From assembly GCA_029866025.1 (NCBI GenBank), contig JARXAD010000006.1, positions 18,907 to 82,906 on the forward strand: a DNA stretch of 64,000 bases. The letters run 5' to 3'. Positions 17,677-31,998 of the stretch are shown here, one piece after another. Origin of the DNA: Vampirovibrionales bacterium. GTDB taxonomy: Bacteria; Cyanobacteriota; Vampirovibrionia; Vampirovibrionales; Vampirovibrionaceae. The position numbers and the translations under genes are program-made. The notes under the pieces were generated by a model. It made no database searches. It was given only the letters and a program-made list of their open reading frames with translations, and was not told where the DNA came from. Each line of letters begins with the position of its first letter. The first letter of the stretch is position 1.

Positions 17677-17707
17677 ATGGTGGCGCCTCCAGGAATTGAA
17701 CCAGGGA
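17677..17707 (-). repeat. 31-bp exact copy of the 3' end (T-loop to CCA plus 1 nt) of tRNA-Phe; attL-like direct repeat
   Basis: atggtggcgcctccaggaattgaaccaggga identical to 31922-31952; similarity decays over the next ~15 nt. Confidence 0.85.
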
Positions 17708-17854
17708 GAGGAATATTTTTAAGTATATAATGAAGTATACTCTCACTGTCTATTTTTCTAAAAATAGAAGCCATTGAAAGACTTTTGGCTATTGGGCATA
17801 ATGGGCCTTAATTCTCAATGATTCCTTAGTTTACTGGCTTATTCTGTGCACGAC

Positions 17855-17873
17855 TACACAAGAATTACACAAC
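17855..17873. repeat. 19-bp motif tacacaagaattacacaac (tandem ACACAA/AATTACACAA iterons), copy 1, ~150 bp inside left repeat
   Basis: Exact match to 31856-31874. Confidence 0.7.
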
Positions 17874-18075
17874 GTTTTCACCGGAAATGCCATAGGCCCC
17901 CTGGAAATTAGTTCGGATGGCACTTCTTTCTTACGCTTAATTAGTGCCAGTTGTAACAAATTATAAACAAAAGAGTGGTACCCCCTCAGGTTTTGTCAAG
18001 TTAGTCGAAATAAAGTGGTAAGACCATAAAGCCAATAAGAGTAAAAAAGTAGTATTAGCCAAATCGCAACAATCA

Positions 18076-20067
18076 TTGGGTGTTGTTATGTCGTTTCCAT
18101 TACTGCTGTCGTTGTGTCGTTATTACCGGTGGCCCGTGGCCTTAGTGGTCTCTGTAACAGTGTGGACCGCCGGACTGCTAACGGCTGTGCAAGCCCCTAT
18201 TGTTTGGGCACCCAGCGATGTAACAACAGCCTTGGGAGGCATTTTAACCGGTTTGGCGTGGAGTAGTGCTGGGTTATGGCTGTATTTTTTAAAAGATCAA
18301 CCTACGTTTTATGCCCAGCGCACCTTAATACAGGCAGCGGCCATTGCCGTTTTGCTAACCCAGGGGGTGTGGCTTCAGGCGTCGTGGTTATCAGTGGCGA
18401 CAGGTTATTTAACCATTAAGGTTTTAATCGGCCTGTCATATCCCAAAAAACTAGAGCCTGTTTCAGGCGTAGCTCTGGGCGGATTGAGTCAATGGCCTCA
18501 TCGTGTGGGGCCTGCGATTACAAGAGGTGTGCTGATTTTAAGTGTGGCGTGGTTATTGTTCCTCACCTTTTTTCCTTCGTGGGCACTGGGGCTATTGATA
18601 CCAGCGCCCGCCGTTATTAGTGTGTATGGTTTGGCGTTAATGGGATACGCCTTTGCCACCTTTCGGTTGTTTTGTGGACCCATCGCGCCCCCCTCGGTGG
18701 GCCTTACTGGCTGGGGATTGGTTACCGGCTTGGATGTGCTGCTATATGCCGCTGCCTTGCTGGCCACTCTCCAGCCTTTTTCTCTTACCTCGGCAGGGGT
18801 TTCCTCTGCCGTTATCAACACGATGCTGCTCGTTATTCTTAGCCATAGCGTGGCCTTAAGCTGTGTAGAGCAATGGAAGCGATGTCTTGGCAGTGTGCAT
18901 ATTAAGCGGCATCACCACACCGCGCACCAACAGCTGCATGTGGATTTGGCCGTCAAAACCATCCAATTAGAACAGGAAGTAGCCACCCGCCGCAAAGCCC
19001 AAGAAGAGCTACACAAAATTAACCAAGATTTAGAGCAACAAGTGCAACTGCGCACTGCCGATATGGAAATGATTTTACAAGAATTGGGGCAGGTGAATGC
19101 CCAAATGGAAAGCGAACTGAACGAACGTAAGGTGCTGGAATCACAGTTGGTGCAAGCACAAAAAATGGAATCGGTTGGGCAATTGGCTGCTGGGGTGGCC
19201 CACGAAATTAACAACCCTGTTGGGTTTATTCTAAGCAATTTACGCACCTTGGATGAATACGTGCAGTTACTGCAACAACTGCTCAACCATTACGAAGACT
19301 TGGAAACCTCTTTGATGCAAGCCCCCTTAGGTGAATTAGGAGACAACGAAGACTTGGTTCGACCCATCTTAAACAACTTAGCCACCTTTCGAAAAAACGA
19401 AGATATTGGTTTTATTTTGCAAGATTTAACGGGCTTGCTAGCAGAGTCCATTGACGGCTCCAATCGGGTGAAAGAAATTGTGCAAGGCTTAAAAAGCTTT
19501 AGCCGCATTGATGAAAGCACATTGCAGCAAGTGGACTTACACGAGTGTATAGAATCCACTTTAAAGGTGGTTTGGAACGAAGTGAAGTACAAGTGTAACG
19601 TTATCAAACACTACGACGCCCAATTACCGCCCCTACTATGCTACCCCGGCCAACTTAATCAGGTGTTTTTAAACTTGCTGGTCAACGCCGCCCAAGCCAT
19701 TGAACAACGGGGCGATATTACCATTGCCACCCGAACCGAAACCTTCAATGATACTCCTCACATTGTGATTGAGATTACCGACACGGGGGCCGGGATACCG
19801 GCCAAATTACTCACCAAAATTTTTGATCCCTTTTTTACCACCAAGCCAGTTGGCAGTGGTTCGGGGCTGGGATTGGCCATTTCCTACGGCATTGTTCACA
19901 AACACCAAGGCACGTTATCCGTTCAATCCACCGTAGGCAAAGGGACGGTCTTTACCATCGCCCTACCCATCAACGCCCTCACTCCCACCCACGTGTCCGA
20001 ACCGCCGTTGACTACCTCTGGAGTACCCAGCTATGAACGCCAGCTTCTCAGCCCGGTTGCAGCCTAA
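18076..20067 (+). CDS. Sensor histidine kinase with N-terminal multi-TM membrane sensor domain
   Basis: ~8 predicted TM helices, coiled coil, HisKA box AAGVAHEINNP, HATPase_c motifs DTGAGIP and GSGLGLAIS. Confidence 0.85.
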   Translation: MGVVMSFPLLLSLCRYYRWPVALVVSVTVWTAGLLTAVQAPIVWAPSDVTTALGGILTGLAWSSAGLWLYFLKDQPTFYAQRTLIQAAAIAVLLTQGVWLQASWLSVATGYLTIKVLIGLSYPKKLEPVSGVALGGLSQWPHRVGPAITRGVLILSVAWLLFLTFFPSWALGLLIPAPAVISVYGLALMGYAFATFRLFCGPIAPPSVGLTGWGLVTGLDVLLYAAALLATLQPFSLTSAGVSSAVINTMLLVILSHSVALSCVEQWKRCLGSVHIKRHHHTAHQQLHVDLAVKTIQLEQEVATRRKAQEELHKINQDLEQQVQLRTADMEMILQELGQVNAQMESELNERKVLESQLVQAQKMESVGQLAAGVAHEINNPVGFILSNLRTLDEYVQLLQQLLNHYEDLETSLMQAPLGELGDNEDLVRPILNNLATFRKNEDIGFILQDLTGLLAESIDGSNRVKEIVQGLKSFSRIDESTLQQVDLHECIESTLKVVWNEVKYKCNVIKHYDAQLPPLLCYPGQLNQVFLNLLVNAAQAIEQRGDITIATRTETFNDTPHIVIEITDTGAGIPAKLLTKIFDPFFTTKPVGSGSGLGLAISYGIVHKHQGTLSVQSTVGKGTVFTIALPINALTPTHVSEPPLTTSGVPSYERQLLSPVAA

Positions 20068-20287
20068 TGCCAACGTATTTGGTGCCAACGTGTTTGGCAG
20101 CGATGAATTTTCCCCCATGTCCACCCGTCCCATTGTGGGAATGTCTGCCATCCTAGACGAGGTGGTGTGGCAAGACCTAAGCCTGATGGAAATGAGTACT
20201 CGCTGTCATCCCCGTGGCAACGTGGCCTTAGAGCCCCTTATTTTAGGCTGGGTGACCCTAACCCCTTGTGGTGCATGTTTATAAATA

Positions 20288-21211
20288 ATGACCTTTATTC
20301 CTCACTCTCCTAAAAAGGAACAATCCGTGGCCGCTTCTTATCCTTCTTACAACGCAACGGTAGAACAACTGTTTACCACCCCACGTGGGGTCCCCACCGC
20401 GTCGGTGGTACCCATCCACCCTCAGCCTGAAAAAAACCGACTGCTGTTAGTGGATGACGAACACAACGTGTTAAAAGCCCTAGCCCGCATGTTGCGAAAC
20501 GAAGGTTACGACATTATTACGGCCAGCAGTGGCGAAGAAGCCCTTCAAATTTTAGAGACCCACCCCATGGATGTGGTGATTAGCGACCAGCGCATGCCCC
20601 ACATGACGGGCACTGAACTATTGGCTAAGGTCCATCAGCGTTACCCCGATACGGTGCGCATGGTGCTCTCGGGCTACGCGGATATTGATTCCATTTTGGG
20701 TGCCATTAATTACGGGCACATTTATAAATTTCAAACCAAACCGTGGGATGAAACCCAACTAAAAGCCGTGATTAGCGAGTGCTTTACCCACCACAGCTAC
20801 CTGCAAGAACGCAAAGTGCTGGCCAAGGCCCTGCAGGAAGAAAATAAAAGTTTAATGAACAACACGCAGCATCTGTTTCAGTTTATGGTGTCTCGCTTGC
20901 AACGCACCGATATGTGCCAAGACGTGTTTCAGGATTTTCCCCTGCCTATTATGGGCATTGATGCCAACCAGCGGCTGTTTTTACTCAGTGAAATGACGCA
21001 TTTGCTGTTCCCCTCGCTGGAATCAGCCGGTGTGATGGAGCACATTCAAGATTGCTTGCCGAGTGCGTTACTGGAGGCTTACGAAAAAATACTCCACAAC
21101 CCGCCGCTAGAGCCCATGGCCTTAAGCGTCAATGGCATGGATCTCCGTATTCATTCGTACCGGTTGTGCGCCAATAATAGCCACTTACTGCTGCTAGAAA
21201 TTGTTAGCTAA
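20288..21211 (+). CDS. Response-regulator receiver protein with ~150-aa C-terminal domain of unknown function
   Basis: REC signature LLLVDDEHNV...DVVISDQRMPHMTG...KP; C-terminal half has no recognisable DNA-binding or enzymatic motif. Confidence 0.7.
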   Translation: MTFIPHSPKKEQSVAASYPSYNATVEQLFTTPRGVPTASVVPIHPQPEKNRLLLVDDEHNVLKALARMLRNEGYDIITASSGEEALQILETHPMDVVISDQRMPHMTGTELLAKVHQRYPDTVRMVLSGYADIDSILGAINYGHIYKFQTKPWDETQLKAVISECFTHHSYLQERKVLAKALQEENKSLMNNTQHLFQFMVSRLQRTDMCQDVFQDFPLPIMGIDANQRLFLLSEMTHLLFPSLESAGVMEHIQDCLPSALLEAYEKILHNPPLEPMALSVNGMDLRIHSYRLCANNSHLLLLEIVS

Positions 21212-31526: not shown

Positions 31527-31616
31527 TTGTGCGAAATGACAAACTACACTCTGCTAAAATTAGTCACTTGGATATCTCGAGTTTACATCAAATGAGTCAT
31601 TAATTAGTTAAACCCT

Positions 31617-31658
31617 AAATACCTCCCCCCACCGCTTATCGGTGGGGGGAGGTATTTA
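31617..31658. terminator. Perfect 18-bp-stem hairpin (loop cttat) downstream of USP gene; probable bidirectional terminator/insulator
   Basis: aaatacctccccccaccg / cggtggggggaggtattt exactly complementary. Confidence 0.5.
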
Positions 31659-31855
31659 TTACAACGGCTTATTCTTCATTATTGCGAGGCGATTTCATTA
31701 AAAGATGCTTCTCTTTTTCAATCACTTCTGACTGCCCTCCAAAAGGTGATCCGATCATAAGTAGAGAATTGGGTCATATTATAATTGACTCAAGTGACGA
31801 GTTTCTGTCACATTCCCTCAAAGCCCTATGCTATATGGATAATTACCGGCTAAAT

Positions 31856-31874
31856 TACACAAGAATTACACAAC
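31856..31874. repeat. 19-bp tandem-iteron motif copy 2, ~50 bp inside the tRNA-Phe end
   Basis: aattacacaag aattacacaac; identical to 17855-17873. Confidence 0.7.
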
Positions 31875-31922
31875 AGGCCGTTTGATTATTTATTTAAACT
31901 TAGACCGTAATCAGTCGTAAAA

Positions 31923-31998
31923 TGGTGGCGCCTCCAGGAATTGAACCAGGGACACGAGGATTTTCAGTCCTCTGCTCTACCAACTGAGCTAAGGCGCC
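31923..31998 (-). tRNA. tRNA-Phe (anticodon GAA)
   Basis: Reverse complement GGCGCCTTAGCTCAGTTGGTAGAGCAGAGGACTGAAAATCCTCGTGTCCCTGGTTCAATTCCTGGAGGCGCCACCA folds as cloverleaf: 7-bp acceptor, D-arm GCTC/GAGC, anticodon loop CTGAAAA, T-loop TTCAATT (one T-T mismatch in T-stem), encoded CCA. Confidence 0.9.

Follow-up and report, generated by a model that had tools for sequence, protein, structure and literature searches.

Integrative elements classically insert into genes for transfer RNA, and there are good descriptions of islands in which the integrase is gone while both attachment (att) sites persist. The Islander collection (Hudson, Lau and Williams 2015, PMC4383910) uses the sublocation classes of Williams 2002 and requires an integrase gene inside the island; its commonest class is a block reaching from the T-stem region of the tRNA gene to its 3′ end (1836 of 3919 islands), and a 3′ fragment is present in 3760. 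Cis-mobilizable elements (CIMEs) and tandem accretion at a tRNA gene are known from the ICESt1-related elements of Streptococcus thermophilus (Pavlovic et al. 2004; Bellanger et al. 2011; PMC5704250). Here we describe a 14-kb segment (positions 17677–31998) that lies between an intact tRNA-Phe gene and a displaced copy of its 3′ end in a 64,000-nt stretch of contig JARXAD010000006.1 from a Vampirovibrionales bacterium (GCA_029866025.1); this whole stretch is called the window, and all positions refer to it. We consider it quite likely that the segment is what remains of one or more integrative elements that entered at tRNA-Phe, kept their att sites and lost their integrase, as CIMEs have. The case adds little to general biology, and the segment is notable mainly for the respiratory cytochrome operon that it carries. 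It nevertheless offers a clean worked example from the Vampirovibrionales, non-photosynthetic Cyanobacteriota known mostly from metagenome-assembled genomes (MAGs), in which we know of no described mobile elements, although no literature search was directed at this point.

Like the Islander entries, the segment combines an intact tRNA gene with a displaced 3′ fragment in direct orientation, a repeated block that starts in the T-stem region and a typical length (14.2 kb). It differs from them in having no integrase, a relic of which is present only in a related contig, and in its composition, which is not anomalous; a deviation from the host is a frequent but optional mark of such islands. With CIMEs it shares the retention of attL and attR, the loss of integration and transfer genes, a probable second module in tandem and decay by internal deletion. 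Unlike CIMEs, it has no detected conjugation or mobilisation genes or relics, it lacks the internal att site expected from accretion, and its host belongs to the Vampirovibrionales, not to the Firmicutes. Descent from an integrative and conjugative element (ICE) or an integrative and mobilizable element is therefore no more than a possibility. The likeness to lambda-type systems with arm-binding integrases lies in tandem iterons spaced at one helical turn, present on both arms at about 50 and about 135 nt from the crossover region and unrelated in sequence to the core; the iteron itself, ATTACACA, and the tRNA target differ, and the case for binding comes from co-occurrence with integrases of one family. 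A functional parallel is provided by the vinyl-chloride respiration islands of Dehalococcoides, which are reported to combine a respiratory function with site-specific integration at a small RNA gene, that for tmRNA (McMurdie et al. 2011, PMC3146451); there, target and enzymes are other than here, and foreign origin is backed by strain comparison. By gene content, the segment is neither a prophage nor an ICE.

Attachment-site structure at tRNA-Phe

The intact tRNA-Phe(GAA) gene lies on the minus strand at 31923–31998, where ARAGORN and Rfam agree with the original prediction. It encodes its CCA end, scores 69.1 bits with Rfam and has a single non-standard pair, U51·U63 in the T stem. It is the only tRNA found in the window, and Rfam gave no further match in the segment. 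A 31-mer, ATGGTGGCGCCTCCAGGAATTGAACCAGGGA, which extends from the end of the variable loop through the T arm and the 3′ strand of the acceptor stem to CCA and one flanking base, occurs exactly twice in the window, at 17677–17707 and 31922–31952. Both copies read on the plus strand and are 14,245 bp apart, whereas 100 shuffles contained no match even with up to three mismatches permitted. Around the 31-mer, ungapped similarity extends over 46 nt (41/46), from 17674 to 17719 at the displaced fragment and from 31919 to 31964 at the tRNA end, both on the plus strand. The weaker similarity said to follow the exact copy is present, with 8 of 12 matches up to the anticodon-loop position. Because all five mismatches of the 46-nt block lie outside the exact 31-mer, four of them within 12 nt on the anticodon side, the repeat boundary is sharp, resembling a recombination joint and not even decay. 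Reading along the tRNA, one passes from the intact gene through 14.2 kb of segment to the displaced 3′ fragment and then to the ndvB gene. The intact tRNA-Phe is the integration target, regenerated on the attL side, and the displaced fragment marks the attR side.

Just inside both ends, an identical 19-mer, TACACAAGAATTACACAAC, is found at 17855–17873 and 31856–31874, as had been noticed in the earlier inspection, and each copy consists of two iterons with an 11-bp period. The pair on the tRNA-proximal arm reads AATTACACAAG AATTACACAAC (31853–31874, plus strand), and the pair on the distal arm reads GACTACACAAG AATTACACAAC (17852–17873, plus strand) and lies about 130–145 nt from the tRNA fragment. 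The two pairs share their orientation. They stand on opposite sides of the tRNA sequence: one 19-mer is 48 nt 3′ of the intact tRNA, with the second ATTACACA octamer of its pair ending 50 nt from the tRNA 3′ end, and the other is about 135 nt from the fragment on the anticodon side. This placement fits the two arms of an attP site and not a segmental duplication. Single iterons are not enriched elsewhere in the window. The spacer between the proximal iterons and the tRNA end (31875–31922, plus strand) holds a 24-mer, GTTTGATTATTTATTTAAACTTAG, at 31880–31903, which is repeated at an internal junction described below.

The same iterons recur beside integrases in viral contigs. A search of such contigs with the recombinase remnant of the related contig L108 (see next section) gave integrases 54–71% identical to it. 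One of these, in contig L112, is 65% identical to the C-terminal part that the remnant represents. Downstream of the integrase stop codon, L112 has four exact ATTACACA octamers, of which two are paired at an 11-bp period; 49 nt beyond this pair begins a 45-nt tRNA-Asn 3′ part that runs from the anticodon loop to CCA. The window thus has the same octamer pair at the same period and at nearly the same distance from the tRNA end (50 versus 49 nt), and the two regions are collinear in alignment. In contig L113, whose integrase is 54% identical, iteron pairs of its own, again with an 11-bp period, flank a tRNA-like core on both sides. Rfam made no partial tRNA call on L112 or L113. The occurrence of the same iterons at the same spacing beside the L112 integrase argues that the 19-mers of the window are arm-type integrase sites, as the original prediction had proposed as one option; on this co-occurrence, they are the predicted arm-type sites of the L112 group of integrases.

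At least 120 viral loci matched ATTACACA-N3-ATTACACA, against a chance expectation that we estimate at about 30. At four of them the motif has a tyrosine integrase and a tRNA gene as neighbours. The L164 locus has a tRNA-Thr end, followed after 11 nt by the iterons and a converging integrase gene; in L178 the order is integrase, iterons, about 165 nt and a tRNA-Phe end; L153 and L185 combine an iteron pair and a tyrosine integrase with tRNA-Glu and tRNA-Val, respectively. The integrases of these four loci are only 22–32% identical to the integrase of a further viral contig, L109, and ATTACACA-N3-ATTACACA may be a widespread arm-site motif. Tied to an integrase clade that uses different tRNA genes, the iteron with its 11-bp period could aid the mapping of att sites elsewhere, in other genomes. 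In the 413-residue L109 integrase, Pfam recognised the catalytic domain only and no N-terminal arm-binding domain. As a whole, the 19-mer has one match in the viral contigs, which lies within an open reading frame (ORF) and was judged to be due to chance.

The repeats could in principle have arisen with no mobile element at all, the fragment being a decayed second tRNA-Phe gene and the 19-mers operators of a response regulator encoded in the segment. Response regulators typically bind tandem direct repeats with an 11-bp period. The kinase gene lies about 200 bp downstream of the left 19-mer, which itself comes just after a promoter-like site, and three DNA-binding or REC regulators are encoded in the segment. 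The right 19-mer, on the other hand, stands between two convergent genes, 48 nt past the tRNA end, where it has nothing to control. The mismatches of the tRNA fragment are not distributed as decay would have it, the same iterons stand beside integrases and tRNA ends in unrelated viral contigs, and an integrase relic is present in L108. As a regulon motif, the 19-mer was also rejected directly, being absent from the homologous cytochrome-operon regions of two relatives (L082 and L083) and not enriched in the window. We regard an origin of this kind as highly improbable.

On the preferred reading of a decayed integrative element, one or, more probably, two related elements would have entered by tyrosine-integrase recombination between attP and the 3′ part of tRNA-Phe. 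In the attP site, a copy of the tRNA-Phe 3′ part would have been separated from one ATTACACA iteron pair by about 135 nt and, on its other side, from a second ATTACACA pair by about 50 nt. Strand exchange would have taken place inside the block identical to the tRNA, with the iterons bound by the N-terminal domain of the integrase, as we predict. Integration would have rebuilt the complete tRNA-Phe at 31923–31998 and moved the 3′ fragment to 17677–17719, leaving one iteron arm beside each. With the integrase lost and both att sites kept, the element is predicted to depend for any movement on a cognate integrase supplied in trans, as a CIME does.

The target tRNA itself has an acceptor stem of the form GGCGCCU/AGGCGCC. 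In Obscuribacterales and related loci, acceptors are of the GCCGAGG type and T stems are paired throughout; the GGCGCCU 5′ strand also occurs in unrelated metagenome tRNA-Phe genes and is not unique. A 28-mer and a 25-mer from the tRNA 3′ part had no match in viral or metagenome contigs, and a 26-mer from the 5′ part matched 17 loci, all of unrelated organisms with other T arms.

The internal junction and its integrase relic

Close relatives of this genome are known only as contigs of 1–4 kb, which stop short of both junctions. Three of them match the segment: L106 corresponds to 18623–20922 (80% nucleotide identity), L107 to 31043–31605 (85%) and L108 to two blocks, 21648–23488 (84%) and 23532–24742 (94%). 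Proteins encoded in the flanks also have relatives at 92–98% amino acid identity on short contigs. A related species thus exists, and since the flank proteins too have near-identical relatives, the presence of near relatives does not discriminate the island from its flanks.

Between its two matching blocks, at the boundary of the HD-GYP and CBS genes, L108 contains about 720 bp with no counterpart in the window. This insert encodes the C-terminal ~100 residues of a tyrosine recombinase, interrupted by a frameshift (Pfam Phage_integrase, E=1.1e-15, profile positions 96–172 of 172). Its matches in the PDB are IntI4, XerA, XerD and the HP1 integrase, and it is 63% identical to residues 310–409 of the 413-residue integrase of L109. 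Beside it lies an ORF of 45 amino acids whose only PDB match is a weak one to the N-terminus of UmuD (E=0.036), possibly a umuD-like remnant. Judged by these similarities, the integrase relic and its putative umuD-like neighbour show descent from some integrative element. The prediction of an island remnant that has lost its integrase thereby gained independent backing: the L108 pseudogene, together with the att design of L112, supports both the reading of the repeats as products of integration into the tRNA-Phe 3′ end and the principal claims built on it.

In the window, the corresponding internal junction (23413–23531, plus strand) is the site of a deletion of about 680 bp relative to L108. 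A trace of the insert persists, as 23425–23484 matches 20 amino acids of the L108 integrase remnant. Just before the integrase stub of L108 stands a 24-mer, joined directly to about codon 310 of the integrase; at 23 of 24 positions it agrees with window 31880–31903, the spacer sequence next to the tRNA-proximal iterons. The window junction has a degenerate copy of this 24-mer (23419–23438, 17 of 20 matches to its last 20 nt).

The junction coincides with a step in synonymous divergence. To its left, the identity of L108 to the window at four-fold degenerate sites is 0.63 for the HTH_17-REC gene, 0.47 for the REC N-terminus and 0.54 for HD-GYP, and that of L106 is 0.51 for the kinase and 0.61 for the REC protein; to its right, the values are 0.91 for CBS and 0.85 for the PAS kinase in L108, and 0.83 for the universal stress protein (USP) in L107. 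Intergenic DNA right of the junction is nearly unchanged between the window and L108 (132/136 identical), and amino acid identities are alike on both sides. The step falls at the integrase relic and the repeated 24-mer, and it indicates that the two halves differ in history. Which half is the odd one can be judged indirectly: the 92–98% amino acid identities of the flank proteins fit the divergence level of the left half better.

From these comparisons, we put the chances that the 14 kb consists of two accreted modules, joined at about 23.4–23.5 kb, at roughly even. In that event, a second, related element would have accreted at the same tRNA, and a subsequent deletion would have taken out one arm together with the tRNA fragment between the modules and the first two-thirds of an integrase gene. 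The integrase would have been lost by later deletion, which left its last ~100 codons in L108, and a further deletion of about 680 bp would have followed in the window. No single simple history accounts for the gene order at the junction. If there were two elements, the tRNA-proximal one must have had its integrase at the distal end, which is not the L112 order; the position of the L108 relic, downstream of the 24-mer, departs from that order as well.

Instead, there may have been a single 14-kb island with its integrase in mid-segment. In that case, the step at 23.5 kb would mark where a tract of homologous recombination broke off at the non-homologous integrase indel, indels being common end points of such tracts. 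The 24-mer would serve as an accessory or regulatory site, with one copy in the arm and another upstream of the integrase gene. The segment has one tRNA fragment and two iteron pairs only; neither a tRNA fragment nor iterons occur at the internal junction, in the window or in L108, a finding that speaks for one island and tells against a composite. However, the related elements examined have their integrase beside an att arm and not 6–8 kb from both ends, and the fusion of the 24-mer to about codon 310 looks like a deletion joint and not like a promoter region. Moreover, three independent contigs agree in showing distant genes on the left and close genes on the right. A single island is therefore possible, though we doubt it.

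Gene content and ancestry of the segment

The genes of the segment, identified with Pfam and NCBIfam, fall on either side of the internal junction. The left module (18076–23395) comprises a membrane histidine kinase (18076–20067, plus strand), a conserved small ORF (20033–20284, plus), a REC protein (20288–21211, plus), an HTH_17-REC regulator (21248–21907, minus) and a REC-HD-GYP gene (22118–23395, plus). The right module (23668–31603) comprises a CBS protein (23668–24282, plus), a PAS kinase (24319–25563, plus), a LuxR-type regulator (25586–26254, plus), a cytochrome operon on the minus strand and a USP gene (31140–31603, plus). The operon (26451–30846) consists of genes for a protein with a CydA-like N-terminus and a cytochrome c domain (26451–27812), cytochrome b (27869–28969), a Rieske protein (29030–29608) and a 402-residue protein without a Pfam family (29638–30846). 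The gene list given in the original prediction stood, with two corrections described below; its view of these genes as one coherent cargo did not, as two modules that meet in the divergence step at about 23.4–23.5 kb are the more probable arrangement.

Across Vampirovibrionia, the conserved operon encodes a protein of about 375–400 amino acids without a Pfam family, the Rieske protein, a cytochrome b in which b6 and subunit IV are fused, and a protein of about 450 amino acids, in which a region resembling the N-terminus of cytochrome bd subunit I precedes a C-terminal cytochrome c domain. The first and fourth subunits belong to no NCBIfam family. Complex III genes of Melainabacteria are treated in PMC6349859.

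Several lesions fit a decaying island, and errors in the MAG consensus are possible. The REC-HD-GYP gene is one frame broken in its REC domain by a TGA at 22307–22309, where L108 has TTA (Leu), and the L108 gene has its own 1-nt frameshift at the position of window 22528; these are either independent inactivations in two lineages or assembly errors. The USP is 128 amino acids long, against 155–160 in relatives, owing to a 1-nt deletion at about 31516–31526, and its former C-terminus persists as a 26-residue ORF (31523–31603). Its identity to L107 at four-fold degenerate sites (0.83) is close to that at the amino acid level (0.87), which suggests relaxed selection. The N-terminus of the kinase has been replaced: codons 1–182 (18076–18622) have no counterpart in L106, and identity rises from none to 73–88% at about 18622, a breakpoint about 900 bp inside the left att scar. 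In their place, L106 (1–853) encodes at least 284 residues of a different, longer membrane domain with a weak match to PF10131.

The left junction (17708–18075) was described as AT-rich and free of ORFs, and we likewise found no convincing ORF in it; the GC content is 0.39 for 17001–18000. At the right end, a perfect hairpin with a 19-bp stem, likely a terminator, lies just past the original USP stop (31616–31658). The 194 nt from the hairpin to the iterons (31659–31852) occupy the place that holds the 3′ end of the integrase gene in L112, L164 and L178. No integrase or transposase was found among the window ORFs of at least 150 amino acids or by tblastn with a family integrase, in line with the earlier statement that no integrase, excisionase or transposase ORF is present; a six-frame search of the left arm and the same tblastn gave only the 20 amino acids at 23425–23484. 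Relaxase, coupling protein and type IV secretion genes were absent from the ORFs scanned. As for phage structural, packaging and lysis genes, matches to PHROGs were confined to generic kinase, REC and USP families and the HTH_17 fold. We also considered the HTH_17-REC protein as a disguised excisionase and rejected it: the resemblance is to a fold family only, and there is no significant similarity to the HTH_17 ORF of L109, which belongs to an excisionase-type fold family.

A number of observations weigh against a decayed integrative element. None of the window ORFs scanned encodes an integrase, an excisionase, a conjugation protein or a phage structural protein. The L108 scaffold that carries the relic is metagenomic and could in principle be chimeric. 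A discontinuity in GC content or k-mers across 17.7–32.0 kb had been proposed as a check, and none is present: GC and tetranucleotide profiles inside the segment are the same as in the flanks, and the tetranucleotide correlation with the rest of the window is r=0.90–0.94 in segment and flanks alike. No empty or differently occupied tRNA-Phe site was met among the loci reached. The four-gene operon occurs in all six relatives examined (L082, L083 and L085–L088) at 60–70% identity, lying among housekeeping genes, with different flanks each time and without a tRNA. The named homologues of cytochrome b are nearly all from Vampirovibrionia (older name Melainabacteria), with one labelled as a photosynthetic cyanobacterium. 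Its presence in all six relatives, in varied contexts, marks the operon as ancestral in the lineage, as opposed to imported from a distant donor; nothing shows that the cargo is foreign. The two closest of the six relatives have a PAS kinase and a LuxR regulator after the operon, and one of these two also has CBS before it. Precomputed Pfam labels of called genes near the relatives' operons include no integrase domain, although no dedicated search was made.

The survey of relatives of the flanking region was based on the adjacent aminotransferase gene. Among 80 loci in genome contigs, identities reached at most 74%, and none shared the neighbours seen in the window; a tRNA-Phe gene near the aminotransferase was seen only in Obscuribacterales and other Melainabacteria-type loci, where it is on the other strand. 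The query is the sole member of its ≥90% cluster; the nearest aminotransferase outside that cluster shares only 75% identity with it and lacks synteny.

Taken at face value, the ancestry of the operon could mean that only the arms derive from an element, nearly all of which has been deleted, and that the genes between the scars are native, brought there by rearrangement or by capture of the neighbourhood. The host-like composition agrees with this, as do the rearrangement breakpoint in the kinase N-terminus about 900 bp inside the left end and the presence of the Rieske/cytochrome b operon, PAS kinase and LuxR regulator in other contexts throughout the lineage. A further point in its favour comes from L107, in which a fragment of a DDE transposase from an insertion sequence (158–556) occupies the position upstream of USP at which the cytochrome operon has its promoter region in the window, so that the boundary between USP and operon varies as well. 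On the other side, the att arms are perfect (31/31 and 19/19), which suggests that little time has elapsed, yet several rearrangements that restored orientation would be required. In addition, the integrase and umuD-like relics of L108 lie between supposedly native genes, and the relatives match the right module far more closely than the left, as expected if the right one had been exchanged. We consider this explanation unlikely, and retain that of a decayed element whose cargo would have arrived with it.

It would go further to propose that the right module, with CBS, PAS kinase, LuxR regulator, Rieske/cytochrome b operon and USP, is still exchanged among Vampirovibrionales as a tRNA-Phe-specific island, which we hold to be rather doubtful. 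If it does move, a quinol-oxidising complex and its own sensor–regulator pair would travel on a site-specific element. This would provide a concrete vehicle by which respiratory modules spread laterally in this lineage and would bear on their distribution among the relatives of Cyanobacteria.

Other features of the window

Outside the segment, the window has three further features. A perfect (CTAC)n microsatellite of about 17 units (6055–6131) lies about 30 bp upstream of an ORF with a methyltransferase domain (6163–7029) and is a candidate phase-variable tract. The region 38094–48059 carries the gene for a repeat-rich protein of 2620 amino acids and that for a ShlB/FhaC-type transporter, which together constitute a two-partner secretion pair; with internal repeats of 735 bp and about 1050 bp, it is the sole tetranucleotide outlier in the window (r down to 0.69). 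Finally, a 23-nt inverted repeat, AAGGTTGACGTTAACGTCAACCT, is found at 56299–56386; its arms are 91% complementary, 42 nt apart and each near-palindromic. It overlaps the start of an ORF on the minus strand (55539–56351), upstream of cysteine synthase, and may be an operator.

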